From NCBI GenBank assembly GCA_041650715.1, contig JBAZKQ010000001.1, positions 262,945 to 326,944 on the forward strand: a stretch of 64,000 bases of DNA, read 5' to 3'. Under the pieces are notes generated by a model. That model was not told where the DNA came from. It ran no database searches and saw only the letters and a program-made list of their open reading frames with translations. This DNA is from Patescibacteria group bacterium. Lineage in GTDB: Bacteria; Patescibacteriota; Patescibacteriia; Patescibacteriales; UBA12465. The position numbers and the translations under genes are program-made. Shown piece by piece: positions 5,992 through 63,652 of the stretch; the first letter of the stretch is position 1, and every line of letters starts with the position of its first letter.

Positions 5992-5998
5992 TTAATAT

Positions 5999-6024
5999 AA
6001 GCCGGTTCTTCCGGCTTATTATTT
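5999..6024 (+). terminator. intrinsic terminator after tsf
   Basis: AAGCCGG-TTCTT-CCGGCTT followed by ATTATTT. Confidence 0.6.
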
Positions 6025-6027
6025 AAC

Positions 6028-6840: not shown

Positions 6841-6859
6841 AAAAATCTATATAAAAAAA

Positions 6860-6888
6860 GCGCCGTTTCGAGGAGACGGTGTTTTTTT
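6860..6888 (+). terminator. intrinsic terminator
   Basis: CGCCGT-N9-ACGGTG hairpin followed by T7. Confidence 0.6.
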
Positions 6889-6949
6889 ATATTCTATAAA
6901 AATATGCTATAATTCTGATTAGAATAAGCTATAAATAATTAAAATAAAT

Positions 6950-7963: not shown

Positions 7964-7978
7964 ATAAATCATGAATAT

Positions 7979-9756: not shown

Positions 9757-9770
9757 TTTAATTTAATTTT

Positions 9771-10535: not shown

Positions 10536-10545
10536 AAAAATTTCC

Positions 10546-46736: not shown

Positions 46737-47957
46737 TTAATTAATATTTAATGATTTGAATTTTTTCAGAAAAATTTTGGCCCCGGGTTGGCGATAAGGG
46801 TGGAGGCTCGCGACCAGATTATCGATGTCTACCCACTTATAATTTATATGATCCCAGAAACAAATTTTAATTTCTTGATTAATGTTTTCGAGTTCGGCTA
46901 CATAAAGACCTTGCCTCTGGCCTTTGTAGTCGTTAATATAGCGGCGTGATCCGCGGTATGGTTCACCTTTTTTTATTTTAGGAAATGAATAATGATAGAT
47001 ATTTCTAAATTTGGCTACGGTTTTAAGATCACTGAGACCAGTTTCTTCTTGGATTTCGCGTCGGCCGGCGACTTCTAAGCTTTCACCGTCTGTTCCGCCT
47101 TGGGGCAATTGCCAGTGGTTCCCTTCATCCTTCCGTTCTAAAATAAGAACTTTAATTTTTCCCGCCTCCCTTTTGAAAACAAAACAAGCGACATTTTTAC
47201 GGTAGAGCCAGGGGTTAATGAATTTTAATTTAATTATTTTTCCCGTGAAGACGAAGGTCGCTCGGTAAATTCGTTTTAAACGAGCACTCGGGTTTTTTTG
47301 TCGGCGCGCGTCAAATAGGCGCCAGAGCCATTCTATTCCTAGGCGGCGCAGTAGTTGCGGCGCGCGTTTGGTTTTGTTGGTGATAAAGTCGAAGGAGCCG
47401 CCGATACCAAGCGCAACTTTAACACTCGGCAATTTGCTTATATTATGATACATCAATTTTTCTTGATACGGAAAACCGAGGGTATTAAAAAATATGGCGG
47501 GCGCAAAATTATTAATTTCCGTGATTAGTGCCGGTTCTAAAAATTTGGCCCGACTAACATTTTTAATCATGAATATCAAGGAGGGATATTTACGCGCAAG
47601 AGCGGCTGTGATGTCAGCGGGTTGCGATAAACTATTTTCCCAATTAAGAATCAGGACTCGGTTTTTATTCTTGGCTGCCATTTTTAGGACTTCAAGCGTA
47701 ATGTCGGCACCGGTAACGCGGGGCACCTTTTCGCCGAATAAGGCGGCCGCTATTTTAAGGCCAACCCCATCGGCGAGCGACAGGTCGGCGCGGTTTAAAA
47801 TATAAAATAATTCTCCGTCCTGATGCGCGGCCAGAATTATTTCGGGGTTGGGAGTGACAATAAAATGCTGCCCACTGTCGTTTAAAAAATCAGCGATCTT
47901 TTTCAAGACCTCTGAGGGCGATAATTCGCTTAAATTTATTCCCAAAATATTGACCAT
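46737..47957 (-). CDS. fusion protein with an N-terminal WecG/TagA/CpsF (GT26) glycosyltransferase and a C-terminal NUDIX hydrolase
   Basis: The N-terminus has ILGINLS...IVTPNPEIILAA...ADLSLADGVGL (GT26). The C-terminus has a Nudix box GGTDGESLEVAGRREIQEETGL. Confidence 0.75.
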   Translation of the reverse strand: MVNILGINLSELSPSEVLKKIADFLNDSGQHFIVTPNPEIILAAHQDGELFYILNRADLSLADGVGLKIAAALFGEKVPRVTGADITLEVLKMAAKNKNRVLILNWENSLSQPADITAALARKYPSLIFMIKNVSRAKFLEPALITEINNFAPAIFFNTLGFPYQEKLMYHNISKLPSVKVALGIGGSFDFITNKTKRAPQLLRRLGIEWLWRLFDARRQKNPSARLKRIYRATFVFTGKIIKLKFINPWLYRKNVACFVFKREAGKIKVLILERKDEGNHWQLPQGGTDGESLEVAGRREIQEETGLSDLKTVAKFRNIYHYSFPKIKKGEPYRGSRRYINDYKGQRQGLYVAELENINQEIKICFWDHINYKWVDIDNLVASLHPYRQPGAKIFLKKFKSLNIN

Positions 47958-49183: not shown

Positions 49184-50287
49184 ATGAGAATTGCATTTAT
49201 TGGACAAAAAGGAATCCCGGCTAAGACTGGTGGCGTCGAAAGATACGTCGAAAGCCTTGCCCTTAACCTCGTCGCCCAAGGCCAGGAAGTATTAGCATAC
49301 TCACGGCGTAATTATAGCCATGATCTAAAAGAATATAAGGGCATTCAAATAGTGGCTTTACCGAATCTTCCGGGAAAAAATTTGGAAGCAATTTCTCATA
49401 CTTTCTTTGCCTGCCTTGATCTCATGCGGCGCAAAGTCGATGTAATTCATTTTCAATCTATCGGACCCTCTTCCCTGATTTGGCTCGTTAAAATCCTTAA
49501 ACCGCGCACACCGATTATTTTCACTTTTCATTGTCAGGATTATCATCATCAGAAATGGGGCCGCTTTGCTCGTTTATATTTAAGTATGGGTGAAAAAATC
49601 GGCTGTCAGTCATCGGATAAGATTGTGACAATCTCCAAGGAGCTTAATCGCTATGTGACGACTCGCTATCAAAAACAGGCTGTTTATATTCCTAATGGCA
49701 CCACAGTGACAGAGAGAACGCCAGTTCAGGAAATTCGCCGTTGGGGACTCGAAGAAAATAATTATTTAGTGGCGATTTCCCGTTTGATTCCTCATAAAGG
49801 TATCCAGTATTTGATTGACGCCTATAAGCAGTTGGCGACTGATAAAAAATTGGTCGTTGTCGGCGAGGGCTCGCATACCGATGATTATGTTAACCAGTTG
49901 CACCTGTCCGCCACTGACAACCCGAACATCATTTTTACCGGTAATCAAACCGGCCGCGCCTTGTCTGAATTATATTCTAATGCCTACGCCTTTGTGCAGC
50001 CTTCCGAAAGCGAGGGTTTATCGATCGCTTTACTTGAAGCTATGGGCTACGGCCGCGCTTGTATCGTGAGCGATATTGAGGCTAACCTGGAAGCTTTGGG
50101 AGATACCGGTTATATTTTTGAAAATAAGAATGTTAGTGATTTGAAAGATAAATTAGAAATTGCTTTGGCCAAACCCGAAGAGTTAAAATTATTGGGCGCT
50201 AAAGCCTTGGCGCGCGTTAAGACAGATTATAATTGGGAGGATATTACCAAACAGATGCTATCCGTTTATCAAAGTGTTTTAAAATAA
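49184..50287 (+). CDS. family 4 (GT-B) glycosyltransferase
   Basis: MRIAFIGQKGIPAKTGGVERYV N-terminus and SESEGLSIALLEAMGYG (EX7E). Confidence 0.85.
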   Translation: MRIAFIGQKGIPAKTGGVERYVESLALNLVAQGQEVLAYSRRNYSHDLKEYKGIQIVALPNLPGKNLEAISHTFFACLDLMRRKVDVIHFQSIGPSSLIWLVKILKPRTPIIFTFHCQDYHHQKWGRFARLYLSMGEKIGCQSSDKIVTISKELNRYVTTRYQKQAVYIPNGTTVTERTPVQEIRRWGLEENNYLVAISRLIPHKGIQYLIDAYKQLATDKKLVVVGEGSHTDDYVNQLHLSATDNPNIIFTGNQTGRALSELYSNAYAFVQPSESEGLSIALLEAMGYGRACIVSDIEANLEALGDTGYIFENKNVSDLKDKLEIALAKPEELKLLGAKALARVKTDYNWEDITKQMLSVYQSVLK

Positions 50288-50305
50288 GTTAAATATATTC
50301 GCTTT

Positions 50306-50352
50306 CTGCCCTTCCCCGAGTCAATTAGTTTAATTGTCTAAGGGAAGGTCAG
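50306..50352. other. long imperfect hairpin at the boundary between the GT4 gene and the unknown-function block
   Basis: CTGcCCTTCCC (50306-16) pairs with GGGAAGGtCAG (50342-52). The inner hairpin is CAATTA-GTT-TAATTG. It is followed by an A-run, not a T-run. Confidence 0.4.
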
Positions 50353-50415
50353 AAAAAAGTACCTTCAAAATTAAATAGGAATTTAGTATAAACCCCCCAA
50401 AAAAAATCAGAAACG

Positions 50416-51630
50416 ATGAAAAAAATGAAAACGATTGCCAGGTGGTTGATGATTATCCCACTGATGCTACTTTTGGCAAATTGCCAGAAGATAAACGAAA
50501 AGGACTTTGGTCCAGGAATAACAGGCCCACCGGATGACGGCAGCAATGCTATCCTGAAAACATCGGCTGCAGTAACAGCCGATACCTTGAAATCACTGCC
50601 AGATATGGTTATTAAATTCTGGTGGGAGGGCTTGCCTACTTTACCCGCAGGCGTTTCTTACCAATACACCTGGAATTTTGGCGACGGTAGTGTCGTCCTG
50701 AATACTGCCCGAGTTGAGCACCAATATTCGGTTGGTGTCTATCAACTTACTTCTACAGCGACTAATCCCTTGTCAGGTGTTATTGTAACGCGCAGTCTGT
50801 GGGTTAAAATCGCCGTGACCTATGTAGCTGATAATACGATTATCGTGTTGGGCTACGCGGCCGTGTCTGGCGGTTATGACTATCACCTTGGATTCAAGGC
50901 AAGTACGGTGGCTGGCTTTCAGGTGCCGCCTTATACCGCCAACAACGTACCCTTTGTTACTGGGACTTTCTGCAACTGGCAAATAAATCCTCCTCCGTCT
51001 AATCCAGATTATACGAATATAAATGGAGAGATTTATCTTACCCGACACTTCGTATTTCCGAATAGTTCGGCACAGGATTTGCATTTTGGCCAAATAACCA
51101 ATTGGTCTTATAATCCAAACTCAAAATTTTGGGTTAGTACCGGTGTTGGGAGCGGAAAATATGTGATTTATCCGTTCAATGGACAAATTTACAGTTTTCC
51201 TCCGGGTGTAGTTTACTATCCAGGAGAGGATGGCGATGCGGTCGGCAGTATATATCCGCCGACCGTTCGCGATTCTTTGCTTCTTGGAAGTACGGCCGCG
51301 ACTGATTCATTGCGTATATTTATTAATTATCAGCAGTACGCTAACGGTTCTCAGCCTTTTTTGTCCTTTGTTCATCTGAACAATTGGTCGAATGTGGCTC
51401 TGAAAATGATTGACAATACGGGATGGGGTTATAGAACTTTTGCAATATCAAGCATCAAGCTTGATAACAACCGTTTATACTTTAAGTTTGGTCCTAATTT
51501 GGCCGCACCTACTGTGTATGGAGACATGACACACTCCAAATTCTATGATGCCACTAATGAAATGTGCGGCCTTCAATTAGCTACCATGAAAAGTAGTGGA
51601 AAACATTATAACGTTGTCGTAATAAAATAA
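50416..51630 (+). CDS. lipoprotein of unknown function with a PKD-like motif
   Basis: Lipobox LLLANC. YTWNFGDGS resembles the PKD-domain WxFGDG signature. The rest is unassigned and beta-rich. Confidence 0.5.
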   Translation: MKKMKTIARWLMIIPLMLLLANCQKINEKDFGPGITGPPDDGSNAILKTSAAVTADTLKSLPDMVIKFWWEGLPTLPAGVSYQYTWNFGDGSVVLNTARVEHQYSVGVYQLTSTATNPLSGVIVTRSLWVKIAVTYVADNTIIVLGYAAVSGGYDYHLGFKASTVAGFQVPPYTANNVPFVTGTFCNWQINPPPSNPDYTNINGEIYLTRHFVFPNSSAQDLHFGQITNWSYNPNSKFWVSTGVGSGKYVIYPFNGQIYSFPPGVVYYPGEDGDAVGSIYPPTVRDSLLLGSTAATDSLRIFINYQQYANGSQPFLSFVHLNNWSNVALKMIDNTGWGYRTFAISSIKLDNNRLYFKFGPNLAAPTVYGDMTHSKFYDATNEMCGLQLATMKSSGKHYNVVVIK

Positions 51631-51660
51631 TGATTCAATTTCCTATTTAAAAAATAGCTT

Positions 51661-51692
51661 AACCCCGTCCCCCCCAAAGAGTCGGGGTTTTT
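51661..51692 (+). terminator. intrinsic terminator
   Basis: AACCCCG-N15-CGGGGTT followed by TTT. Confidence 0.55.
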
Positions 51693-51714
51693 AATATCCA
51701 AAAATCTTTTTTAC

Positions 51715-51748
51715 AAATAAAAAAGGCTCGGTTTTGATTCCGAGCCTT
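51715..51748 (-). terminator. intrinsic terminator for the minus-strand block
   Basis: AAGGCTCGG-N8-CCGAGCCTT. The minus strand then continues into a U-run. Confidence 0.65.
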
Positions 51749-51768
51749 GTTGTTAGCATCTTATGATG

Positions 51769-52647
51769 CTATTTTTTTTCGTAATTAAAATTACTAAGAA
51801 AATCTGCCCCGTCAAGCATGTTGCCTGGATTATGCAGTTGAACCTCATGGTTAGCCAGGGCCGATCTGGCCGAGGATGACCCCGTCTTCAGAATCTCGTG
51901 AGGAACGTACATCGGGTAGTTGTATTGAGATTGTTGGCCGATATATACCGACCAAACAACCGGTCCGTATTTATGGTCGACATCAAGCAGCCGGGCGATA
52001 GTAATTAACTGATTACTTTCGTAAATCCATAAGTTTTTACTGGCATCCCAGTAAAACTCGAAATTTGGATCAGTGCCATTTAAGATCGGCGTAGCTCCTT
52101 GTGCAAGCTTACCCTCACCTGAATTGAGCTCCTCATTGCTGATATAATACACAGCGTGGGATTCCTCGTTTATGGTCACACCGTGGCCTTTCGTGTAGAC
52201 ACCCCTGTATTTATCGCCAGACAAGCCGAAATCTTCAGTATGGCTTGGCGAATCAGCAGGAACGATAGCTCTTTGTGAACTCACGGTTGGCGTTGCCCTC
52301 GGCGTTGTGTTGCCCTTAGAAGATTGGATTGGCCTGCTTTGAACCGTGGCCTTTTTCGACGTAGAGATAGTGGTGACAGTTTTTGTAACTGTTGTGATAC
52401 CCATACAAAGGTCCAGAGAGCTTTTATATACGCGACATGAATCCTCTAACGCAGCGATACGGTCGTATGCAGAAATTAGCTCATTGTTTAAATTTTGGTT
52501 CGTCAGCTGTGTGCTGTCTGGTGGAAACAATTTTGATTCTTCACTTTTTCCTCCGTGATAAACGCAGAAATAAAGTAGTAATAGAATTATTATGAGCAAT
52601 AGTGCCCCACCGCCGTAATACCATTTTTTGTTTGTGCTTTGTGCCAT
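51769..52647 (-). CDS. membrane-anchored protein of unknown function
   Basis: ORF track. One N-terminal TM helix (GGGALLLIIILLLLYF), a T/S-rich linker and an unassigned C-terminal domain. This is one of the few genes here with a canonical SD (AAGGAGGAAcaaaaATG). Confidence 0.5.
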   Translation of the reverse strand: MAQSTNKKWYYGGGALLLIIILLLLYFCVYHGGKSEESKLFPPDSTQLTNQNLNNELISAYDRIAALEDSCRVYKSSLDLCMGITTVTKTVTTISTSKKATVQSRPIQSSKGNTTPRATPTVSSQRAIVPADSPSHTEDFGLSGDKYRGVYTKGHGVTINEESHAVYYISNEELNSGEGKLAQGATPILNGTDPNFEFYWDASKNLWIYESNQLITIARLLDVDHKYGPVVWSVYIGQQSQYNYPMYVPHEILKTGSSSARSALANHEVQLHNPGNMLDGADFLSNFNYEKK

Positions 52648-52710
52648 TTTTTGTTCCTCCTTGTTTTTTGGTTTTTAATTGAGTTAATAAGTGTTGTTTG
52701 TGTTAATTTC

Positions 52711-53601
52711 TTAATAATTTTTTTGGAATAGAGCTTTTCCCAGTTCAATAACATTGAGGTTAGCCCCAATGTAGAAGGTGTTGCCAAATTTTGGATCAAA
52801 TTTGACGTTGCCCTCGATGACCAAGAGTTCTTCGCTGTAGGTGCGAGCCAAGGTTAGGCCAATACCTGCTGTGAAAAGTGTGCGGTGATCATTGAATTGA
52901 TTAATCGCCCCGAACATCATCTTGGGTTCGAATCTGAGTGACTCCGCCATATTTAACGGAATCGTGACAAAAGTATTTTCGAACACCGCCCGAAAAGATC
53001 CTTTGTTAGTGATGTTCAGTGATGAATCGGCAATCTTTTCACCATCCCAATAAGCCGTTAATTGGCCTTGGCGGGTCGGGCTCTGCAGGGTAAGCATAAG
53101 CTTCTGCATATAGAGCGGTCCGCGCATTTCCGGGTTTTTCAGCAAGACGCCGATATTCCCGTAAAATAACTGATCATTCTGCCGACCGTCGTATTGGCCG
53201 TTAAACGTATTTTTCTGGCCGTGGTCTTTTGTGGATTTTATACCCAAATTGGACCAACCCCAGAACTCACGCATTGGAAACCAATACTTTGAACCGAAGT
53301 TCATCGCCAAACCACCGCACCATTCGGTGTCGTGGTACAGGAACTCGTCTATTTTACTTCCGACTTCAACATAATTTACGAATACGCCTAAAGAAATAGG
53401 ACTGTAATCGTTTCTGCCGCCAAAAAGAAGCCTGGCTTCCCCCCAGCGATAAGATCCATCACCGTGGTTGGGCACGTAAAAATACGTGTTCCCCACCATA
53501 AGACTCGCATTGGTCAGTGGCGATTCATATTGGGCGTCAACCGGTTTTGCCATAAACAGCAAAGCCAGGAACCCGAAAGAAAAAAGGATTTTTTTTATCA
53601 T
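52711..53601 (-). CDS. secreted beta-rich protein, possibly beta-barrel; paralog of ORF 60114..60965
   Basis: Signal peptide ending VDAQ. Gly/aromatic-rich alternating pattern and a terminal aromatic residue (..FQKNY). It shares W(D/N)G(E/D)..I.DS.N...NK..F...FE and L(R/E)(F/P)EPK..(F/I)G blocks with the 60114 protein. Confidence 0.45.
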   Translation of the reverse strand: MIKKILFSFGFLALLFMAKPVDAQYESPLTNASLMVGNTYFYVPNHGDGSYRWGEARLLFGGRNDYSPISLGVFVNYVEVGSKIDEFLYHDTEWCGGLAMNFGSKYWFPMREFWGWSNLGIKSTKDHGQKNTFNGQYDGRQNDQLFYGNIGVLLKNPEMRGPLYMQKLMLTLQSPTRQGQLTAYWDGEKIADSSLNITNKGSFRAVFENTFVTIPLNMAESLRFEPKMMFGAINQFNDHRTLFTAGIGLTLARTYSEELLVIEGNVKFDPKFGNTFYIGANLNVIELGKALFQKNY

Positions 53602-53707
53602 TTTTATCAGTTTTTGTTGTTAACGTTCTTTTTACTGTTTACCGCCTTGGTAAACGGCCCGTAATTTTCATTACAAGCCTCGGCCCGCTCAGGGCTAAGG
53701 TCTGTAA

Positions 53708-54532
53708 TTAAAAGCGATTGATAAGATTGCGGATATCACCATGCACCGGAAATTCAGAATCATCCTCTACTTGATTATTTTCCTCTTCAATAATAACTTT
53801 TTCGGCCGGATGAGAATGATGGGTAAGCGGAGTTAAATGAGAAATTGGTGCATTGCGCGGAGTCTGGATGGTGTGTGCCAGCGGTTTGTCTGTTTTCTGA
53901 TAGCTAATACGTAATTTAGCGCGGCGCTTATTGGGAGTAAAATAAACATAAATTAAGCCGACAAAAACACCTAAAGCGGAAAAGGCGATAAAGTTGAAAA
54001 CAACATTCGGTTTAACCGGGTAATCCGAGACTAAAGGTTGATCAATTATTTTGATCTTAATGCTTTGATCCCCGCCCTGGTAGTTAAAACCCTGGTTGAT
54101 TAAAGCGTCGTTAACACCTAAGGCGATTTGCTTAGCCTGGTAGGCGTTCGGATGATAAATTGAAATTTCAACAATACCGGAATCATTGCTTTTGGCGGTC
54201 ACGGTTTTTTGCCAAATTTTCATTTGGTCGCGGTAATTATCGGAAAAATAATTTTTATCGATATCGTAATTATTTGCGCTGGTAACCAAATTAAAAAATG
54301 AATTGGAATTCACTACTTGTGAAAATAAAGAACCCAAATATTGATTAGACTTGGAAACGGTATAGGGATCAACGCCGGCAATGTTTTGTACGATAAGCAG
54401 GCGTGATTTTGCCTCGTATTTCAGTGGCTGCGAAAAAGTCGCGGCTCCGCCCAATACTAAAAATATCAGCCAAGCGGAAAAAAGCGCCCCTTTGCGGTGT
54501 CTTAAAATGTGGAAAAAGTCTTTCAATTCCAT
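53708..54532 (-). CDS. Wzz/polysaccharide co-polymerase-like chain-length determinant protein
   Basis: The N-terminus ELKDFFHILRHRKG plus a TM helix, a periplasmic-type middle region and a second TM helix near the C-terminus give PCP topology. Confidence 0.65.
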   Translation of the reverse strand: MELKDFFHILRHRKGALFSAWLIFLVLGGAATFSQPLKYEAKSRLLIVQNIAGVDPYTVSKSNQYLGSLFSQVVNSNSFFNLVTSANNYDIDKNYFSDNYRDQMKIWQKTVTAKSNDSGIVEISIYHPNAYQAKQIALGVNDALINQGFNYQGGDQSIKIKIIDQPLVSDYPVKPNVVFNFIAFSALGVFVGLIYVYFTPNKRRAKLRISYQKTDKPLAHTIQTPRNAPISHLTPLTHHSHPAEKVIIEEENNQVEDDSEFPVHGDIRNLINRF

Positions 54533-54569
54533 ACTATTTATAATTCTTTATAATATTAATTAATATAGT

Positions 54570-54598
54570 ATTATAATATATATAGAATAGTTTGTCAA
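54570..54598 (-). promoter_or_regulatory. sigma70-type promoter of the Wzz-like gene
   Basis: On the minus strand, TTGACA (54598-54593), 17 nt, then TATAAT (54575-54570). Confidence 0.5.
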
Positions 54599-54663
54599 TA
54601 GCTCAGCAGGCACCCCAGACCCGCATCGCAATCGCAATTTTTTTGCTCATTTGCGTATTAATA

Positions 54664-54692
54664 TTGACAAAGAGGCGATAATTTTGTAGGAT
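54664..54692 (+). promoter_or_regulatory. sigma70-type promoter of the 54763 gene
   Basis: TTGACA (54664-69), 17 nt, then TAGGAT (54687-92). Confidence 0.45.
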
Positions 54693-54762
54693 TGATAATT
54701 AGATATGAAACAAAAGTAATTATATTAATTTTTGTTAAATATTAGTAAAAAACTATAAATAT

Positions 54763-56043
54763 ATGAAAAAAATAAGCTTTATTTTAGGCCTCTCTGCTCT
54801 CGCTGTGTTTTTTTTAGTCGCCAACTCGCATAGCCAATTGCAGGCCTATTACTCCGGCGACGCCGTCAATTACAACAATTCGGTCGTAGTCGCTTCGGTT
54901 AATTCCGGAAAATTGGAGGTTTTTAAATTAGAGAACGATTCATTGGTAAAAACCCTTGAGCTTAATAATTTTAGCAGTGTTTTCAACATTAATGAATCAT
55001 ATTCCGACTTAAAATTAAGCATTGAAGACGGCCGCCTTTATGTCTACGCGGTTTCTCAATATACTTTATATAAATATGATATTTCGCCTTTAAGCTCGGC
55101 CCAGCTTGTTAAGCAGGTTAAGAATAATTATTGGGAGTGGTATCAGCGAGTTGATCGTTTAGGAAATGATATCGCCACCCTTAGCGAAAAAGGCATAAAG
55201 ATTTACAATACCAATTTAGATGTCGTTGATTCCTATAATTTTAGTGCCAAAAATCCATATAGCATTCGTTCAAACGGCAGTCAGCAATATCTATTCGCCA
55301 TTGATAACAATAATATTGAAGTCTATGACCGCGGCAGCCGAACTATAGTTCGCACCATTCCTCTGGACTTTATCTATCAGAATAATAACCATAAAGCTTA
55401 TTACGATGTCGTCAGTAATAATATTTTTGCAATTGACGATACCTTCACGAAAAAATTTGATTTGAACGGCAATCTTTTAGCTTCTTTCCGGCACTTAGAA
55501 CAGCCCGGTTATGATGTCGAAAGTACATACGGTAATCCCTATTTCTATTTTTCTAATGGTTTGGGTGTCGTTAAAATGAACAAGGAGACCTTTAAGGTTG
55601 CGGCCTATGCCTATACGACTGATAGTGGCGGACCTCAGGGCTGGGCGATGGGGCTTAAAGTTGTAAATACCGATCAGGGCGATGTGCTTGTGGTTTTTAA
55701 TGGTTCGAATATATTATTGCTTAATAGCAATTTGAAAAAAATTAGTTCCGTTAAATCGAATACTTACGCAGTTTCATCCTCCGCTAACGAAAATTTGTAT
55801 CTAAATTTAAATCATAACTTTGCTTTAGTCGGCGGCGCGGTTACCGTTTCCGGCGGCGGTTTCTGGTCGCAGGAGCCCCTACTTATTAAATTTGGTACGG
55901 CCGGCTTTAGTGCACAGACCGACAATCGCGGTCGTTTCTCAACTGACCTGACTACGCCTAATTTTAAGCCGGGTTATTATGACATTAAAGTGACCGGCGC
56001 TAATTCCCTGCTTACTTATAGCACCTCAATTGAAGTTAAATAA
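54763..56043 (+). CDS. secreted protein of unknown function (beta-rich, Ig-like C-terminus)
   Basis: ORF track. Signal peptide. I recognised no catalytic motif. Confidence 0.5.
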   Translation: MKKISFILGLSALAVFFLVANSHSQLQAYYSGDAVNYNNSVVVASVNSGKLEVFKLENDSLVKTLELNNFSSVFNINESYSDLKLSIEDGRLYVYAVSQYTLYKYDISPLSSAQLVKQVKNNYWEWYQRVDRLGNDIATLSEKGIKIYNTNLDVVDSYNFSAKNPYSIRSNGSQQYLFAIDNNNIEVYDRGSRTIVRTIPLDFIYQNNNHKAYYDVVSNNIFAIDDTFTKKFDLNGNLLASFRHLEQPGYDVESTYGNPYFYFSNGLGVVKMNKETFKVAAYAYTTDSGGPQGWAMGLKVVNTDQGDVLVVFNGSNILLLNSNLKKISSVKSNTYAVSSSANENLYLNLNHNFALVGGAVTVSGGGFWSQEPLLIKFGTAGFSAQTDNRGRFSTDLTTPNFKPGYYDIKVTGANSLLTYSTSIEVK

Positions 56044-56120
56044 AAAAATTTAAATAGTAAACCACAAAACAAAAATACCGCCTTGTCAGCGGCATTTTTT
56101 ATTTTAGGGGGTGATAGAAT

Positions 56121-57344
56121 TTATTGCAAAGCGCGCTGGTAGATTTCGATTATCGCTTTCGTGTGGGTGTCCGCATCCAAATTTTTTACGGTTTCGCGCG
56201 CCGCCTGGCTTAGAGAGAAATAATCGATATTCTTGAGTCCATTTATTTTTTCGGCCAGATGATTGGCGCTCCTGGCCGTAAAAAGAAAGCCATTTTCGCC
56301 ATCCCGGATTATTTCGGGCAGGCCGCCGATATCTGAGGCCAAAACTATTTTACCGCGCGCTAAAGCTTCAAGCATATTCAGCGGCATATTTTCATACCAG
56401 ATTGAGGGGATAACGACGGTTTTGGCCTGGTTAATTAGATTATCGAGTTCAAGCCCGGTTTTAAAGCCGAGAAACTCGACTCGATCTTTTAGACCAAGTT
56501 TTTCCACTTTGGTCTTTAGAGCATTTTCTTCTGGCCCTTCGCCGGCGATTTTTAAATGTTCATTGGTTTGCGTTAGGGCGCTCAGTAAAACCTCGACGCC
56601 TTTTTCTTCGCTGAGGCGACCGAAATAGAGCAAGTAATTGCCTAACTGCTCTCGGCTTAAAATTGGGACGGGATATTTAAGATCGTTAAAGAAATTGTGA
56701 AGACAAATAAATTTTTCGGCTGGCCACGAGAACTCAATGCAGGTTTTCTTCATGAACTCGCTCGGTGCGATAAACAATTTAATGGCCCGTTCGTAAATGC
56801 GCCAAATGCGATGATGAAAATACATTTCCCAAGACGCCGCCAAACTCATTAAGTTAGAATTTTTGACACATTTATTTTTAAAACAATTATAATATTTACC
56901 GCCTTTGCAGCGCAGGCAAACGGCCCCGCGTGTAAATAATTTATAGTTGGGGCAAATTAATTTATAGTCATGGAGATGCATGACGACGGGAATTTTATAA
57001 CGTATAGCCACGCTTAAAATCGAAGGAGAGATTTGGTGATAGATATTATGGATATGGATAATATCCGGTTTGAAATCACGGACCAGGGCGGTAAATTTTC
57101 GCTTCGCTTCAAAGCTATAGAAGATACGAGTAAAGGCGCGCCACTTATTGATTAGGCCGGGAGCGTCGAAGGAGATATAGGAAACAAAGTATTTATGAGT
57201 CTCACAGGGTATATTTTTGGGGCTGTCCATCGCAAAAACCTTGACTTCATGGCCGAATTCCTTCAATTTCGCTTCAAGGCCAAGCAAATAATTACTAACC
57301 CCATCTTTCGGATAATAAAATTTATTAACTTGCAGAATCTTCAT
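56121..57344 (-). CDS. family 4 (GT-B) glycosyltransferase
   Basis: MKILQVNKFYYPKDG N-terminus and ENMPLNMLEALARG (EX7E-type) near the C-terminus. Confidence 0.85.
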   Translation of the reverse strand: MKILQVNKFYYPKDGVSNYLLGLEAKLKEFGHEVKVFAMDSPKNIPCETHKYFVSYISFDAPGLINKWRAFTRIFYSFEAKRKFTALVRDFKPDIIHIHNIYHQISPSILSVAIRYKIPVVMHLHDYKLICPNYKLFTRGAVCLRCKGGKYYNCFKNKCVKNSNLMSLAASWEMYFHHRIWRIYERAIKLFIAPSEFMKKTCIEFSWPAEKFICLHNFFNDLKYPVPILSREQLGNYLLYFGRLSEEKGVEVLLSALTQTNEHLKIAGEGPEENALKTKVEKLGLKDRVEFLGFKTGLELDNLINQAKTVVIPSIWYENMPLNMLEALARGKIVLASDIGGLPEIIRDGENGFLFTARSANHLAEKINGLKNIDYFSLSQAARETVKNLDADTHTKAIIEIYQRALQ

Positions 57345-57405
57345 ATTTTGACATTATTGGGAAAACTAAGTTAAAATTAGGCTTATAAGATAATGATATC
57401 ATAAT

Positions 57406-58770
57406 ATGGCCGAAAAATTAAGAAGTCGCGACTGGCTCATCCTTCTGAGCGGGATATTTATTATCCTCTCAACCCTAATTCTCTTTCTCCCGCTCGAAAA
57501 CGGGGCGAAGTTTTTTTTAATCGCTTCGGGCGCCGTTTTTTTATTTAGTCTTTTAAATTACCGCTGGGGTTTATTTATTTTTCTTTTCTTGCGGCCTCTG
57601 ATTGATTTTGCGACTGAACAGAAGCTTTTTTCCGTCGGCAGCGTTACCGTTAATTTACTTTTTGTGTTTGGCGGCCTAATGCTGCTTTTTTCGCTTCTTG
57701 TTCTTGGCGCTAATTACCGCGAACTCAAGGAGCGGAAGATATTTTCTCTCTGGCTGCTGTTTATCGCCTGGTCCTTTATTTCTCTGGTCTATTCTTTTGA
57801 TTTATTAAGCTCGGTTAAGGAATTATCCCGCTATTTAAGTATATTTTTTAGTTTCGCACTCGGGGCAATGCTCATTAAAAAAAGCCGCGATTTAACGCAG
57901 CTCATAAAAGTAATTATTTTTTCCTCGCTAATACCGGCGGCAGTCGCCTTGGGCCAATATGTTTCCGGAAATGGATTAATTGAAGATGGTATTAATCGTC
58001 TTTACGGCACGATGGCGCATCCCAATATGCTTGCTTTCTATCTTTTATTGCCGATTACCCTTTCTGTTTTTATTTTCTTGACGGTCGATAAAAAACGTTT
58101 GGAAGCTTATTTGTATTTGGCGATTGCTCTTTTTTTGAGTTTTATTTTAGTTTACACCTATACTCGCGGCGCTTATGTCGCTCTCTTATTAATTTTTATT
58201 TTAATCGGATCGCTAAAATATCGGAAATTTCTGGCTGTCGCGGGCATCGGCCTTGTTCTTTTCTATATCGCGTCGTCAACTTTTCAACAACGTTTTAATA
58301 CTATATTCCAGTCTGATCCCTACGGCTCTATTACTTGGCGCATTAGTCTTTATCGTGACAGTTTTTCTTATGTGATGCTTAGCCCGATTATCGGTCAGGG
58401 CGTTGGTTTGGCGGAAACAATTATTGCCACTAATCGTGACTTCCGCTTGGGCGCAACTCAGCCGCATAATGATTATATGCGCCTAGCGCTTGATGGTGGT
58501 ATTGTCGGCGTTGTCCTCTATTTGCTTTTAATCGCCGTTCTCTTTTTTGAACTGATAAGATTGTATAAACTGGAAAATCGTACGCGCTTAAAAATGCTTA
58601 ATATTTTTATTTTGGCATTTACGGTTTCTCTTTACGCCATGAGTATCGGTGATAATATTCTTAACGATACGACTTTAGAATGGCAATTCTGGGCCCTAAT
58701 CGGCGGCCTCTTGGCGACGCAGGTAATAAAAAAGCCCGCCATTTCTGAACGGGCTGCAAAAGTCGATTAG
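57406..58770 (+). CDS. O-antigen ligase/polymerase (Wzy_C) family membrane protein
   Basis: At least 10 TM helices with a central loop YTYTRGAYVALL...HNDYMRLALDGG, typical of the Wzy_C family. Confidence 0.8.
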   Translation: MAEKLRSRDWLILLSGIFIILSTLILFLPLENGAKFFLIASGAVFLFSLLNYRWGLFIFLFLRPLIDFATEQKLFSVGSVTVNLLFVFGGLMLLFSLLVLGANYRELKERKIFSLWLLFIAWSFISLVYSFDLLSSVKELSRYLSIFFSFALGAMLIKKSRDLTQLIKVIIFSSLIPAAVALGQYVSGNGLIEDGINRLYGTMAHPNMLAFYLLLPITLSVFIFLTVDKKRLEAYLYLAIALFLSFILVYTYTRGAYVALLLIFILIGSLKYRKFLAVAGIGLVLFYIASSTFQQRFNTIFQSDPYGSITWRISLYRDSFSYVMLSPIIGQGVGLAETIIATNRDFRLGATQPHNDYMRLALDGGIVGVVLYLLLIAVLFFELIRLYKLENRTRLKMLNIFILAFTVSLYAMSIGDNILNDTTLEWQFWALIGGLLATQVIKKPAISERAAKVD

Positions 58771-58791
58771 GTTTGTTGACACTATAGAATT

Positions 58792-59970
58792 TTAGTGGCT
58801 ACTTATTGCCAGAAGTTTTCCCGCAGTGTTGTAAAGCGTATCGCCCTGCTTGTCTTCTATCCACGCTTCTTTCTTTTTGGGATTTACGTAGACCGTTCCC
58901 CCTTCATATTTTCTGCTAAAAACTGGCAGATTTTTTTTGAAGTTAGAGGGAGGAGCTTCCAGCGCTCGGCCTAAGCAAATTTTGAATTCACTCCGGTAGG
59001 CAGCATTTTGGACGTCGGCGAAACAAACACTATCAAGTAGCAATGCGCTGCAATACGTAAAAAACCAGTTTCCCGGTCGCGCTTGTAATACGGAGAAAGT
59101 GCCCGTCTTGGCAGCATTGGACATATTAATGTTCCAAGCATCATTTAGAGTGTCGCCGGCATATCTAAAGGGAAAACCCTCAAATATCTTTCCGTTAATG
59201 GAGAAATTAAAATCAAGAGTGCCGGGATTGGCGATGATGATAAAGTCATCTCCTTTTATTTTCCGCATCAGCTCGATGAATTTCGCTTGGCCCGATTTCC
59301 AGTTGGCGTTTATTTCCGCTTCGTTTTTGTCCGCTTTTTTATCGCGGTTAAAATCGAGACCGTGATTTCCGTCAACCCACTGGCCCATCCAAAAAATATT
59401 CGGCCAAGCATTGTCATCTTCCATGCCTTTGATACGTTTATCCGATAATATATCGGTTACAAATCGTTTGGCAATGAATTCATAGTAGGTCTCTCCGTCA
59501 ACAAGTGGCGCATTATCACGCATGTCCATAACAGCCGTCTTGCGGCCATCAGCACCGGTCCAAAATGAGACTTTATCTCCGTTCGGCTGCTTGAGCCACC
59601 ATTTTTCTCGTTCTCCCTGTTTTAGCTCATTGGTTATTTTAATTGCCCAGGGGCAATTTTCATACGCAGGACTGAACCACTCGGGGGGATTGAAGTAAGC
59701 TAAGATAATTAGCTTCGAGTTCTTTTTAAGAAGATAGTCTATCCAAGGTGACTTGGCATAGATTATTTCGTTATGAAGTACGATTATATCATAACCGACT
59801 AATGTTTCGGCTTGCGCTTGGTTGATGAAAGGCATGAGCCAGTAGCCGACTGAGCGTGGTCCGAAGTAGCTGTATTTGGTTTGATTAGCTGGGATTTGGG
59901 ACATGGAGCTTTCTGTCAATAAAATCAGAATGAGGACAAATATGCCTCCAAATAACTTCATTTTTTTCAT
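58792..59970 (-). CDS. secreted glycoside-hydrolase-like protein, paralog of the N-terminal domain of ORF 36483..38522
   Basis: Signal peptide MKKMKLFGGIFVLILILL. It shares blocks with the 36483 protein (listed under that feature). Confidence 0.5.
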   Translation of the reverse strand: MKKMKLFGGIFVLILILLTESSMSQIPANQTKYSYFGPRSVGYWLMPFINQAQAETLVGYDIIVLHNEIIYAKSPWIDYLLKKNSKLIILAYFNPPEWFSPAYENCPWAIKITNELKQGEREKWWLKQPNGDKVSFWTGADGRKTAVMDMRDNAPLVDGETYYEFIAKRFVTDILSDKRIKGMEDDNAWPNIFWMGQWVDGNHGLDFNRDKKADKNEAEINANWKSGQAKFIELMRKIKGDDFIIIANPGTLDFNFSINGKIFEGFPFRYAGDTLNDAWNINMSNAAKTGTFSVLQARPGNWFFTYCSALLLDSVCFADVQNAAYRSEFKICLGRALEAPPSNFKKNLPVFSRKYEGGTVYVNPKKKEAWIEDKQGDTLYNTAGKLLAISSH

Positions 59971-60060
59971 TTGTTGGGGGTTTTATGGTGATTATTATTT
60001 TTAAAGTTCGAAAATATTTCGACCCTTTAGTGTATAATAATTTGCGAAATATGTCAACTA
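59971..60060 (-). repeat. promoter-leader cassette, copy A (drives 58792..59970)
   Basis: It is ~75% identical by eye to 60966-61057. On the minus strand, TTGACA (60057-52), 17 nt, then TACACT (60034-29). It contains the perfect inverted repeat TCGAAA-ATA-TTTCGA (60008-60022). Confidence 0.6.
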
Positions 60061-60061
60061 A

Positions 60062-60090
60062 TTAAAAACCCCGGATATAATCTCGGGGTT
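60062..60090 (-). terminator. terminator after the 60114 gene
   Basis: AACCCCG-N10-CGGGGTT. The minus strand then continues into a U-run. Confidence 0.6.
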
Positions 60091-60113
60091 TAAATAAATT
60101 TTACTTTGGACCT

Positions 60114-60965
60114 CTACTTTTTTAGTAGGCGCCAAATCGCTATTATATCCGAGTTGATCTCGAATACATCAAGGCGAGAGCCAAATTCAACACCATAACG
60201 GGCACGGTATTGGAGCGTGAAAGGTTCGTAATAGCGATCATTTTTCATAAACGAAATCGCTATCCCAGAGCCAAATTCATAGTACGATTTTTTTGCGCCT
60301 CCGTCGTAAAGGTAGCCGATGACTAACTTTGGTTCGAGGCGTCCTTTGTTTCCGAGATTGAACCTTTTGGCGGCGGCTTCAAATTGTATTTTGAAGTAGG
60401 CTTTGTTAACAGCTTTATAATTAATGCTGTCACCAATATTTCCGTCGCCATTCCACTGGCCTGCACGTTTGGACCAAAGGTTTTTTTGGAACTGGATTTG
60501 AAGCTTATAGCTCCGAAACCAGCGGTTTAAACTATCGGTAAAATTCGCGCCGGCGATAGAATAAGTTCCAGCGTCTCTTTGCCAAGCTTCTTGTTGCATA
60601 CTGGCATCATGACCGTAATCACGAAATAATTTAAAGCCAGGCATAAGCCAATAGGCGTAGCTGTAATTTCTGTTTAATTTCCCCCAGCCAATTAAGCTGG
60701 GTCCAACGGTGTATTCTTTGGCCGTAAAATTGTAGCCTCCGAAAAGGACGTTTACATTGGTGAAGGCGATAAAGCCTCCGTACAGAGATTGGCCGCTCTT
60801 TACGCTTGCCCCTCCGGTCGCGTATTGGTAAGTTCCGTTACCACTGTTATCGGTGATATAACCGATACCGCCGCTGAGCGAAGGTTCAATATGGTTAGAT
60901 TGGGCCTGTGAGTGATTTAGGCAGGCGAAGAAAAAAAGAAGGGTAATTAATCCGAAAATTCTCAT
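60114..60965 (-). CDS. secreted beta-rich protein, possibly beta-barrel; paralog of ORF 52711..53601
   Basis: Signal peptide ending SQAQ. Gly/Tyr/Phe-rich alternating segments. The blocks shared with the 52711 protein are listed under that feature. Confidence 0.45.
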   Translation of the reverse strand: MRIFGLITLLFFFACLNHSQAQSNHIEPSLSGGIGYITDNSGNGTYQYATGGASVKSGQSLYGGFIAFTNVNVLFGGYNFTAKEYTVGPSLIGWGKLNRNYSYAYWLMPGFKLFRDYGHDASMQQEAWQRDAGTYSIAGANFTDSLNRWFRSYKLQIQFQKNLWSKRAGQWNGDGNIGDSINYKAVNKAYFKIQFEAAAKRFNLGNKGRLEPKLVIGYLYDGGAKKSYYEFGSGIAISFMKNDRYYEPFTLQYRARYGVEFGSRLDVFEINSDIIAIWRLLKK

Positions 60966-61057
60966 GGTTTATTTGGTTTTTTATGGTGACTTTATTGTTA
61001 AGATACAAAAATATTTCGATTTGTCAGTATATAATTATTTACGAAATCTGTCAACTA
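60966..61057 (-). repeat. promoter-leader cassette, copy B (drives 60114..60965)
   Basis: On the minus strand, TTGACA (61054-49), 17 nt, then TATACT (61031-26). It shares the blocks TCACCATAAAA, TCGAAATATTTT and ATTTCG(C/T)AAAT with copy A. Confidence 0.6.
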
Positions 61058-61060
61058 TAC

Positions 61061-61089
61061 AAAAAAGCCGGTGTTTTTGCCGGCTTTTT
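61061..61089. terminator. bidirectional-type terminator after the DUF4012-like gene
   Basis: AAAAGCCGG-N8-CCGGCTTTT. Confidence 0.65.
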
Positions 61090-61117
61090 GAGAGAAAACT
61101 TTTTTTATTTGATAGCT

Positions 61118-62992
61118 TTATTTAAATATTTTATCAGTGTTTAGGTCACTACTCCAGTTTTTGCTATTTCCGTTTTGCGGGCTGATATTTACTTTTAAGG
61201 ATTGAGTACGCCGCCCGGACTGTTTTTGAACTAAAAGTTCATAGGTGTTATTGGTGATTTGCTGGTTAATGCTATCCGGCAAGGAATAATTGATCATGAT
61301 TTCCCGTTCAGTTCCCGGCTCGACCGTAAAAAAGAAACCAAAAATAGTTTTGTTTAAAATCGGATCATCAAGCGTACTCCAGTCGGCCGTGTCTTGATCT
61401 ATCCCCGAAAAATTTATGAGTCGGCTGCCAAACGGAACGTAAATTCGGGTGTAGCTGCGGTAGCGGGTTGTCCGCCAATTGAAGTCGCCTTCGTGACGGT
61501 AATTTAAAGCCAAGGTGGCGGCGGCAATGCCACTGCGCTGTAAGAGCGAGTAGTCAATCGTTTTTTTCATAACGGCGTCGCTTTTAAAGGCGGCCAAGTT
61601 GGCGTCGACAACCATTAAATAATCGCTGGGAGCGGGTCTCACTTCTCCGTCCGCGCCCAGATCTTTAACCAATGATTCTAAATTAGCATCGGCAAAATAG
61701 AGTTGAATATTTTTGGCGGCAATATTATTCTCAATAATTTTAATTAGGCCTCCCCAATCTTTAGTCGGAAGATTAAATAAGCGCGTCTTCAGTTCAGCGA
61801 GCATTTCGTTAATAATATCTTTGCGATCCCAAGAGGAAATATTGCGGTCTTTATAGGCCACCTCGACATTATATTGTAATAATTCTTGAAAGTTATCGGC
61901 GGTATAATCCTCGCCTTTAACATTGATTGGTCCGACCAAGCGCAAAAGATCACTGATGAAATCCGGGTTAATGGCTATGGTGCCGGTAAAATTTGGTGCT
62001 GCTTGTCCGGTGGCCAGACTTTCGCCCGTGTAAATTTGATTAATTTTCTGGGCGGCCAGAGGCCAATCCGGGACCCAATTAGCATCGCGTAAATACCAGT
62101 TCTCTACCCCTAAATATTTTTGGATAGGCACGGGCGGCTCAAGCTGCCATTTTCCTACAGCCGGCATATCGAGGTGATAGCTGTCATCTGTCGAGAGCGT
62201 AATAATCTCCCCGTTTTTAGTCGTCGCGAGCCCAATAACGCCGATGAAGCCACCGGTCGGCCGCAGTTCATCGTTATTCTGCAAAAGAATTAAAAATTCA
62301 CTGCCCTGCGGATATCCGCCGAGCGCCGGTAATAATTTAGTAAGCGCCGGTAATTTAGCGACTAAATCAGCTGCCGTCTGCAGTTGTGTCTTGTATTCGC
62401 TAATCTGGCCATAAAGCGGAGCCAGAATCCCATAGCGATGAATTCGATTAATATTAAATAGGGCTAAATCAAGATTAGCGGCCAGGCCTTTTAGCTCCGG
62501 CTCAGACTCATAAATTAATTGTAAAAAATGAGCCTTCTCGGTATCCGTTAAATTGACAAAGCTGCCTCCGGCCGCCCCGCTGCGAATTTTATTTAATTCG
62601 GCAACGAGCGGAATGGAATTTTCCAAAGAGCGGCTAAGGATCTCGGTTGTTTTAAAAAGATACTCCAAATCATTAATCTGACTCTGCAAAACCGGAACGT
62701 GCTTAAAAATGAAATTATTTTTTATATTGCCTAATTTATCCAAGGCGGTATTAAAGCTGAGATCGGCCGCTTGCGCATTGACGAGAGCATTTGCCCAGTC
62801 TTGATTCTGTACCTGGGTAATGGCTTCGGTTAATTGAGTTTTCCCTTGCAGGCCGCTTGTGTAGACAGTTTTAAAATCACGATAATAAGCAGCCACTAAA
62901 ATAACGAGTGCAAAAAAAAGCCCGACAATAATAATCAGGGCATACTTGAGGAATTTAGCGAGAATATTGATAAAGCTAAAAAGCGTCGTCAT
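61118..62992 (-). CDS. DUF4012-type membrane-anchored extracellular protein
   Basis: N-terminal TM helix and the hallmark block ILLQNNDELRPTGGFIGVIG. Confidence 0.75.
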   Translation of the reverse strand: MTTLFSFINILAKFLKYALIIIVGLFFALVILVAAYYRDFKTVYTSGLQGKTQLTEAITQVQNQDWANALVNAQAADLSFNTALDKLGNIKNNFIFKHVPVLQSQINDLEYLFKTTEILSRSLENSIPLVAELNKIRSGAAGGSFVNLTDTEKAHFLQLIYESEPELKGLAANLDLALFNINRIHRYGILAPLYGQISEYKTQLQTAADLVAKLPALTKLLPALGGYPQGSEFLILLQNNDELRPTGGFIGVIGLATTKNGEIITLSTDDSYHLDMPAVGKWQLEPPVPIQKYLGVENWYLRDANWVPDWPLAAQKINQIYTGESLATGQAAPNFTGTIAINPDFISDLLRLVGPINVKGEDYTADNFQELLQYNVEVAYKDRNISSWDRKDIINEMLAELKTRLFNLPTKDWGGLIKIIENNIAAKNIQLYFADANLESLVKDLGADGEVRPAPSDYLMVVDANLAAFKSDAVMKKTIDYSLLQRSGIAAATLALNYRHEGDFNWRTTRYRSYTRIYVPFGSRLINFSGIDQDTADWSTLDDPILNKTIFGFFFTVEPGTEREIMINYSLPDSINQQITNNTYELLVQKQSGRRTQSLKVNISPQNGNSKNWSSDLNTDKIFK

Positions 62993-62998
62993 ATTATT

Positions 62999-63652
62999 TT
63001 AATGAGTCAGGCTGTTAATTAGGGTAATGATTTTGCCCTCGAGGATATTATACAGAAAAATATCCATAATTTCTTGGCGATAACGGAATTCTTTTTCTTC
63101 CAAAATGGTAAAGTTTAATTCGCGGCCGAGATTTTTTTCCAGTTCTGCCACTAACTTAAGGAAAGTGGGGCGCTTTACCCGGCCAACTATTAAAATATCG
63201 GTTTGCGCCTCCGGATAATTAGTGAAGAAGCCGGTGAGAATTAATAATTTCGGCTGGAAGGTTTTTTCTAAACTCAGGATGAATTTTTGACTGGAAAGAA
63301 TCTGAGCTTTAAAAAACAAGGCGTTAATTTCCGGGTAAAGTATGTGGTTTTTATTAATTTCAAAGAATTTTTTATCAGCTTTCTTCGGGGTTTTATTTTT
63401 TTTGGTTATCGCCGTTTCCGGCTCATGATCGCTCGAGTCACTCTCAATCGTATCGGGGGAAATTTCGGTGGCGGCCGGCGCCACATTTAGCAATCCGAAT
63501 TTTATCAGATGATCAATTTCACGGCGCACTAAATTGGCCGGTAATTTCAGGTCACGGGCAACTTGACTAAGCTCATGTTTTGTTTCGGAGTGAAGCAAAA
63601 ATAGGTTTATTATTTTTACTCTTTGTTCCGAACCCAAAAGCTGCGTAAGCAT
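62999..63652 (-). CDS. winged-helix (ArsR-like) DNA-binding protein with a C-terminal nucleotidyltransferase-like domain
   Basis: The N-terminus RVKIINLFLL...ELSQVARDLKLPANLVRREIDHLIKFGLL is wHTH-like. The C-terminus has DILIVG...LEKNLGRELNF. Confidence 0.55.
   Translation of the reverse strand: MLTQLLGSEQRVKIINLFLLHSETKHELSQVARDLKLPANLVRREIDHLIKFGLLNVAPAATEISPDTIESDSSDHEPETAITKKNKTPKKADKKFFEINKNHILYPEINALFFKAQILSSQKFILSLEKTFQPKLLILTGFFTNYPEAQTDILIVGRVKRPTFLKLVAELEKNLGRELNFTILEEKEFRYRQEIMDIFLYNILEGKIITLINSLTH

Follow-up and report, generated by a model that had tools for sequence, protein, structure and literature searches.

Whether a bacterium from a lineage regarded as single-membraned can encode β-barrels of the outer-membrane type is the question raised by a surface-glycan locus of a Patescibacteria group bacterium (NCBI GenBank assembly GCA_041650715.1). 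The locus lies in a stretch of 64,000 nucleotides, referred to below as the window, which covers positions 262,945 to 326,944 of contig JBAZKQ010000001.1. It contains two minus-strand genes for secreted proteins, barrel A (52711..53601, 296 amino acids (aa)) and its paralog barrel B (60114..60965, 283 aa). The Patescibacteria, or candidate phyla radiation (CPR), are described as monoderm in the literature (PMC11665869; PMC12102498; 10.1101/2021.05.31.446380), and porins are reported to have been lost in the Chloroflexi/CPR clade (10.1101/2021.05.31.446380). For most CPR bacteria, the envelope architecture has never been imaged (PMC8871954). They are widely inferred to be epibionts, and their nutrients are thought to be taken directly from the host (PMC11665869). 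Here, A and B are confidently predicted to form 12-stranded barrels resembling those of outer-membrane proteins (OMPs), with both termini on the same side. It is also well supported that the A-type barrel is a fixed part of a surface-glycan locus of the Wzy/polysaccharide co-polymerase (PCP) type, which in addition holds a putative GHL15 hydrolase.

What fold do these proteins adopt? AlphaFold2, given an alignment of 31 family members, returned a mean predicted local distance difference test score of 85.3 and a predicted template modelling (TM) score of 0.80 for A, and values of 88.0 and 0.81 for B. The two models are alike and consist of a signal helix, 12 main antiparallel strands of 9-22 residues with tight turns between them, and, at the C terminus, a short helix. 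The strands start about 8 residues past the signal peptide, and the mature protein (about 260 aa) is a barrel only. In Foldseek searches of the PDB, the top matches of A were Hbp (E=1e-8, TM-scores 0.54/0.57), NalP, EspP, and BrkA, and those of B were EstA, Hbp, NalP, and BrkA. PgaA, PelBC, NanC, intimin, CymA, and OmpG were found lower in the two lists. The best structural matches, which are mostly 12-stranded autotransporter β-domains, have TM-scores of 0.5-0.57, and a library of viral models returned autotransporter β-domains again (TM-score 0.52). No soluble fold was present among the top structural matches of A or B in the PDB or the viral model library. Because the leading Foldseek matches are all outer-membrane barrels, a soluble β-sandwich or jelly roll is not what the models depict, in agreement with the barrel-like segments noticed in an initial annotation of this DNA, which was made from the sequence alone. 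Closure of the barrel and the pore through it are read from these fold matches. Neither A nor B matched a curated OMP family in Pfam or NCBIfam, and profile searches of the PDB with the barrel family gave nothing significant.

The predicted strands also carry the surface pattern of a membrane protein. The predicted strand boundaries were combined with Kyte-Doolittle hydropathy averaged over the family, using the 10 terminus-side residues of each strand. In this belt, the outward face averages +1.3 in A and +1.2 in B, and the inward face averages -0.9. The contrast was reached by none of 5000 permutations in which positions were shuffled within strands. All 12 strands contribute to the belt, invariably at the end of the barrel where the N and C termini lie, and the outward face becomes polar where strands 3-7 are much prolonged on the far side. 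This pattern fits a membrane-embedded barrel with an extramembrane β-extension. The polar residues that are invariant in the alignment of A and B (E93, K122, D126, Q141, D143, E208, E225, and K227) all have inward parity in the predicted strands, which would place a conserved group of charged residues inside the lumen of the modeled barrel.

As proposed in the initial annotation, A and B are true distant paralogs by sequence comparison. BLASTP aligned them over nearly the full length (E=4e-7, 23% identity), and the alignment contains the blocks WDGE..DS.N..NK..F...FE and (R/L)(F/L)EPK on which that proposal had been based. A hidden Markov model (HMM) built from homologues of B alone recovered A at E=4e-16 among 721 open reading frames (ORFs), and hhalign joined the A and B families with 99.3% probability (E=3.5e-20, 241 columns). 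Within the window, the family profile matches only A and B. Both proteins start with a Sec-type signal peptide, as judged from the sequence (MIKKILFSFGFLALLFMAKPVDA|Q in A and ...LNHSQA|Q in B). By a simple heuristic, signal peptides were found in 98 of 118 family members.

How far does this family extend? For A, word-indexed searches gave 8 homologues at about 50% identity, and for B they gave 27 at 38-82%; the few that are named are labelled Falkowbacteria or "bacterium." A HMMER search with the combined A and B profile among 1.84 billion representatives collected 97 proteins at E<=1e-3, nearly all of them 260-320 aa long, and no diderm homologue was found in this search. Clustered at 50% identity, the family comprises about 97 clusters. 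A profile search with a distant subfamily gave only three proteins. HMM scores split the representatives roughly into A-like proteins, B-like proteins, and a third large group that often ends in a hydrophobic strand, such as ..NFALIF. None of 104 members reached a Pfam gathering score, the best match being Autotransporter at E=4.7e-4; among them, sub-threshold matches were to the Autotransporter β-domain (PF03797) in six cases, to PagL in one, and to OMP_b-brl in one. All genomic contexts inspected for the barrel family are CPR-like. As far as checked by such searches, the family is restricted to the CPR and previously undescribed, with no entry in Pfam or NCBIfam and no PDB sequence entry. 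No published report of OMP-like barrels in CPR was found, within an incomplete coverage of the literature. One variation of the architecture is seen in P0119, P0125, and P0127, in which a LysM domain and a long Pro-rich linker precede the barrel and nothing follows it. These fusions match the 104-sequence family HMM with E=6e-38, 1e-34, and 1e-29; A and B have no LysM. Members that end in Phe and whose signal peptides end in "AQ" were considered as Bacteroidota OMPs. Two of them, P0079 and P0116, were traced to the CPR locus that is syntenic with that of A, and therefore the idea of Bacteroidota OMPs, and of transfer from them, was dropped.

The barrel genes belong to the core chromosome of a CPR organism. 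Members of the 90%-identity cluster of the NusG encoded in the window are labelled Candidatus Falkowbacteria or Patescibacteria group, and the contig is from a patescibacterium close to Candidatus Falkowbacteria, which agrees with the CPR origin considered in the initial annotation. NCBI lists protein A as hypothetical, from a metagenome-assembled Patescibacteria group bacterium. Its length is 758-809 kb (758 kb being the ENA figure). Besides NusG, the window encodes ribosomal proteins S2, L1, L11, and L27, EF-Ts, methionyl-, seryl-, and glutamyl-tRNA synthetases (the last GluRS), DnaX, and CTP synthase. Since the barrels share the window with genes for ribosomal proteins, tRNA synthetases, and NusG, they are part of the core chromosome and not of a stray fragment. 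No outer-membrane biogenesis gene was found in the 64-kb window, and no Omp85 in the window or the inspected 20-kb loci, where the sole POTRA match is of the FtsQ type.

The gene directly upstream of barrel A (53708..54532, minus strand) encodes a CpsC/Wzz-like polysaccharide co-polymerase. It matches Pfam Wzz at 1.5e-6 (28.9 bits, cut-off 25.5) and GNVR at 0.002, and its nearest NCBIfam model is the Gram-positive CpsC-type TIGR01006 (3e-8, under the cut-off of that model). The product has hydrophobic segments near residues 17-35 and 187-207, which would be the two flanking transmembrane segments expected of such co-polymerases. On the other side of barrel A, a 292-aa protein (51769..52647, minus strand) with an N-terminal membrane anchor and a Ser/Thr/Pro-rich linker is encoded. 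It has no family match in Pfam or NCBIfam, and its positional orthologues evolve fast (45-60% identity). A promoter-like site identical to the sigma-70 consensus at 12 of 12 positions lies upstream of the Wzz-like gene (54570..54598, minus strand), and a terminator-like hairpin with 9 pairs, 6 of them GC, and a T-run follows the 292-aa gene (51723..51748, minus strand). These two sites, both consensus matches only, suggest that the Wzz-like gene, barrel A, and the 292-aa gene form a single operon. Barrel B has a promoter-like site of its own at 61054..61026, also a consensus match only.

The adjacency of the barrel and the co-polymerase recurs in other genomes. An A-type barrel gene lies directly downstream of a Wzz-like gene in seven independent contexts, namely the window and the related loci L002, L005, L024, L027, L028, and L013; the last is a rearranged locus with an additional B-like copy between the Wzy and GHL15 genes. 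In L022, the barrel gene adjoins that of Wzy. In L026, one of the LysM fusions (P0127, 8001..9584) is flanked by homologues of the Wzz-like gene and of the 217-aa gene described below on one side and by Wzy and glycosyltransferase family 4 (GT4) genes on the other. The conserved order is a Wzz-like co-polymerase, the barrel, and a membrane-anchored surface protein, and the Wzz-barrel adjacency outlasts rearrangement of other cluster genes, for example those of the 426-aa and PKD proteins. The GHL15 gene is conserved beside the Wzy gene.

B-type genes were surveyed with a scan based on an alignment of B homologues alone, which found 10 loci; the combined A and B alignment was too divergent for this purpose. 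A framing of the cluster by two barrels, which the initial annotation had seen in the window, does not hold in general: the site between the DUF4012 and GHL15 genes has no barrel B in the closest relatives L002 and L005. In L012, a homologue with 80% identity to B is found among clpB, fmt, dnaB, and recR, and further B-type genes adjoin rmuC/gyrA, znuABC/HU, or dnaE/deoC/ftsW. Conserved linkage to glycan genes was found for A-type genes, in the seven contexts listed above; most B-type genes stand among housekeeping genes. The genes for proteins of about 500 aa beside the B-type barrels in L012 and L018 do not match the 502-aa ORF of the window. Two further features were seen in B-type loci. 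An IS1595-family transposase gene (DDE_Tnp_IS1595 with a Zn ribbon) lies beside the B-type barrel gene in L009 (10899..11714) and is missing in the otherwise identical L008. In L008 (1..3271), a UvrD/AddB-like helicase-nuclease of 1327 aa carries Hint and intein-splicing domains, so that it appears to contain an intein.

The remaining genes between and around the two barrels are those of a polysaccharide locus, and the co-polymerase, GT4, and Wzy-type genes that had been assigned between the barrels were all recovered by family models. The GT4 glycosyltransferase (56121..57344, minus strand) matches Glycos_transf_1 at 4.7e-37 and Glyco_transf_4 at 5.7e-16, and the polytopic membrane protein of the Wzy/O-antigen-ligase type (57406..58770, plus strand) matches Wzy_C at 2.9e-19. 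Next to the latter lies the gene of a secreted GHL15-like putative glycoside hydrolase (58792..59970, minus strand). This protein is paralogous to the N-terminal half of a GHL15 and FG-GAP protein encoded elsewhere in the window (36483..38522, plus strand; GHL15 4.7e-30 plus FG-GAP repeats), a relation already noted and now supported at E=6e-19 with 27% identity. A direct Pfam scan gave no GHL15 match for the cluster copy at E<=1, but its orthologues carry precomputed GHL15 matches; a PDB sequence search with it found nothing. A secreted protein of 426 aa (54763..56043, plus strand) has no match in Pfam, NCBIfam, or the PDB and is conserved in the cluster, with orthologues of 41-66% identity in L002, L005, L013, L022, L024, L027, and L028. 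It is divergent from the Wzz-like gene, and the intergenic region (54547..54692) holds, besides the perfect 12/12 minus-strand site, a 10/12 plus-strand site.

At one edge of the cluster, a DUF4012 protein (61118..62992, minus strand; DUF4012 2.6e-23) is conserved in L002, L005, L013, L022, L027, and L028. It is always preceded by the gene of a 217-aa protein (62999..63652, minus strand), possibly a winged-helix regulator by its sequence, with orthologues of 37-66% identity in L002, L005, L013, L022, and L026. In L022, two adjacent HisRS-like genes (tRNA-synt_His, 5987..8442) are inserted between the DUF4012 gene and the glycan genes. At the other edge of the variable cluster, a GT4 glycosyltransferase of the DUF1972 type (49184..50287, plus strand; precomputed Pfam matches) is kept in all syntenic loci. 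It is followed by a secreted PKD-domain protein (50416..51630, plus strand; PKD 2.9e-6), a fast-evolving cluster member with 56-67% identity in close relatives and 28-30% in distant ones. The conserved flank includes a WecG/TagA-type glycosyltransferase fused to NUDIX (46737..47957, minus strand), assigned from precomputed Pfam matches and synteny. Its gene adjoins that of CorA in every syntenic locus, and the NUDIX part is missing in L022.

The locus is much more variable than its surroundings. The whole glycan locus (49184..62992) is far more diverged than its flanks and resembles a variable cassette of the serotype type. For example, the flanking genes of L024 are 67-86% identical to those of the window (CorA 83%, XerC 86%, GluRS 70%, and M23 67%), and its glycan genes are 41-53% identical; its barrel is about 20% identical and gave no BLAST match. 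In L002 and L005, divergence is greatest in the genes of the barrel (48-51% identity), of the 292-aa protein (45-60%), and of the PKD protein (56-67%), and the Wzy, GT4, and Wzz genes have 67-75% identity. Such a pattern would be that of a surface-antigen cassette in which the barrel is among the most exposed parts.

Some features of the window outside the locus may be mentioned here. At 8722..12300, three genes stand in a row, encoding a NuoF-like flavoprotein (Complex1_51K), a 254-aa protein with no known family, and the large subunit of an [FeFe]-hydrogenase (Fe_hyd_lg_C 3e-87); they resemble those of a multimeric hydrogenase, here in the genome of a CPR bacterium. At 30983..33487, an 834-aa coupling protein of the VirD4/TrwB-type type IV secretion system is encoded directly upstream of dnaX; monoderm-type systems of this kind are reported to be common in Patescibacteria (PMC12102498). 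The ORF of ribosomal protein L27 (29677..30120) is 147 aa long and Pfam L27 spans only residues 2-73, leaving a C-terminal extension of about 70 residues.

How do these barrels compare with known systems? The closest in fold are the β-domains of type Va autotransporters (Hbp, NalP, EspP, BrkA, and EstA; PF03797), which likewise have 12 antiparallel strands, about 250-280 aa, and a Sec signal peptide. A and B differ from them in having no passenger domain and no N-terminal linker helix threading the pore; the sequence similarity of the family is under every curated threshold, and the organism is reported to have neither an outer membrane nor the β-barrel assembly machinery (BAM). NanC/KdgM (12 strands), CymA, and OmpG (14 strands), which are among the fold matches, are also monomeric proteins that consist of a barrel alone, are similar in size, and have a charged lumen, but no sequence relationship was detected, and these porins work in a true outer membrane. 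Inverse autotransporters (intimin/invasin) are comparable to the fusions P0119, P0125, and P0127, because both combine LysM with a 12-strand-type barrel, and the intimin barrel (4e1s) is among the fold matches. In the family, however, the C-terminal Ig-like passenger is missing, and the intimin barrel model is not matched. In gene content, PgaA, PelB, AlgE, BcsC, and Wzi offer a parallel in which a barrel gene goes together with polymerisation genes and a dedicated glycoside hydrolase, the latter being typical of exopolysaccharide (EPS) loci. The hydrolase of the cluster is a GHL15 (PF14885) paralog and can be set beside PelA, Sph3, and Ega3; the GHL15 family itself consists only of hypothetical hydrolases, and the role of the cluster copy is putative. 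The likeness to PgaA/PelB-type export modules, which the initial annotation had stressed, is plausible as an analogy, and the details differ: PgaA (4y25) and PelBC (9h80) are among the fold matches of A and B with TM-scores of only 0.25-0.33, and several of the known EPS barrels are synthase-dependent, whereas the cluster in the window is of the Wzy/PCP type with a Gram-positive-style CpsC-like co-polymerase.

What, then, could such barrels do in this cell? That A and B represent a family of Sec-exported OMP-like barrels is well supported. As to their role, we lean, tentatively, towards the A-type member as a surface-distal partner of the co-polymerase: embedded in some lipid or lipid-like layer outside the cytoplasm, it would pass or hold the polymer that the cluster makes, working like Wzi, PgaA, and PelB without belonging to those families. 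Trimming of this polymer would fall to the GHL15 hydrolase, and B, in this view a dispersed paralog, would have a more general role as a channel or anchor. Several points weigh against this reading. The fold is a predicted one, and the hydrophobicity of the belt is only moderate. With Patescibacteria described as monoderm, neither a membrane to receive the barrel nor a machine to assemble it is known. Known EPS export barrels have 16-18 strands, often with tetratricopeptide repeats, and A and B have 12 strands and no such repeats. The Wzz-barrel adjacency sits in a broadly syntenic region and may partly be inherited gene order rather than functional coupling, and B-type genes, mostly lying among housekeeping genes, have no glycan linkage in most genomes. 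The C-terminal residue is aromatic (F, Y, or W) in only 25 of 118 members and Lys in 51; a canonical β-signal therefore does not seem to be a family trait. The aromatic end pointed out earlier for A is indeed present, as a Y behind the predicted helix, and it is not kept in its orthologues.

The same observations can be read in other ways. An epibiont might export the barrel into the membrane of its host cell, such as the outer membrane of a Gram-negative bacterium, as a nutrient pore or anchor; in the LysM-linker-barrel fusions, LysM would grip the wall of the epibiont itself, with the barrel lodged in the host membrane. We know of no monomeric OMP-type barrel that inserts into a foreign membrane from outside, and the fixed operon position behind the organism's own co-polymerase gene would be left unexplained. 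We regard this as unlikely, even if it would account for the hydrophobic belt of proteins from a lineage in which no outer membrane is known and agrees with direct feeding of inferred epibionts on their hosts (PMC11665869). The barrel, at 48-51% identity against 65-80% for its neighbours, is also among the fastest-evolving genes of the locus, as expected of a host-contact protein, and the fusions of LysM, Pro-rich linker, and barrel match the family strongly (E=1e-29 to 6e-38). A similarly low probability is given to the view that A and B are not membrane proteins at all: they may be secreted or wall-associated β-barrels, or barrels modeled with too much confidence by AlphaFold2, that bind a glycan or lipid, and their moderately hydrophobic face may serve oligomer packing or ligand binding instead of lipid contact. 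An outward face of just +1.2 to +1.3, TM-scores to real OMPs of 0.4-0.57 with root-mean-square deviations of 6-11 Å, the absence of any OMP family model matched at threshold, and the monoderm description of the group all agree with this view. It is opposed by the belt, which occupies the same side of all 12 strands and was equalled in 0 of 5000 permutations, and by top structural matches that are all membrane barrels. Moreover, a 12-stranded barrel is too wide for a packed hydrophobic core.

A lipid-containing outer layer of this CPR clade, either a relic of a diderm ancestor or new, with resident barrels and with the LysM fusions tethered to peptidoglycan, is less probable still. It would suit the OMP-like architecture with its signal peptide, belt, and even strand number, the hydrophobic C-terminal strand resembling a β-signal in some members (e.g., ..NFALIF), and the sub-threshold similarity to autotransporter barrels. 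LysM-barrel fusions resemble the tethers between outer membrane and peptidoglycan in diderms, such as intimin, OmpA, and OmpM; the fusions fit this layer and a host-inserted barrel alike and do not discriminate between them. Most CPR envelopes have never been imaged (PMC8871954), but genomic surveys and the few imaged CPR cells indicate one membrane, with porins lost in Chloroflexi/CPR (10.1101/2021.05.31.446380). The window holds no gene for outer-membrane biogenesis, and the one or two barrels seen so far in each genome would be a very small number if there were a real outer membrane. Recent horizontal acquisition from a diderm, to which the initial annotation had also pointed, or contamination during assembly or binning, with no role in the CPR cell, had some appeal: the "AQ" signal-peptide ends and the C-terminal Phe of some members look like those of Bacteroidota OMPs, and several related metagenome-assembled genome (MAG) records are titled "uncultured Gammaproteobacteria." These Phe-ending members occupy the same CPR syntenic position, the family is deeply diverged within that position, and the genes are inside a large contig with ribosomal protein, aminoacyl-tRNA synthetase, and NusG genes. 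As the same locus is found in at least 8 independent assemblies and no diderm homologue was recovered from the 1.84 billion representatives searched, recent transfer or contamination is effectively excluded. The titles themselves concern L012, L013, L016, L017, and L019, which are CPR-type loci in GenBank third-party annotation MAG records titled "uncultured Gammaproteobacteria bacterium"; two of the contigs, with the names NODE_1 or NODE_12, have a length of about 600 kb. The titles are probably labelling errors on CPR genomes, because of the gene content and the similarity to Falkowbacteria loci.

The wider consequence depends on where the barrels reside. It is conceivable, if on balance doubtful, that Falkowbacteria and their relatives are not strictly monoderm and possess a lipid-containing outer layer, either retained or newly evolved, with their own OMP-like 12-stranded barrels, tethered to peptidoglycan in the LysM fusions, and no canonical BAM, or that they plant such barrels in the membrane of a host for feeding or attachment. 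Either case, if true, would mean a new kind of envelope or of interface between epibiont and host. β-barrel membrane proteins serve as a hallmark of a second membrane, and models of outer-membrane gain and loss treat the CPR/Patescibacteria, to which a very large part of bacterial diversity belongs, as monoderm. Barrels of CPR bacteria that are tied to a surface-glycan locus give a handle on the composition of the CPR envelope and on how epibionts contact, and feed on, their hosts, and the CPR envelope may be less simple than has been assumed.

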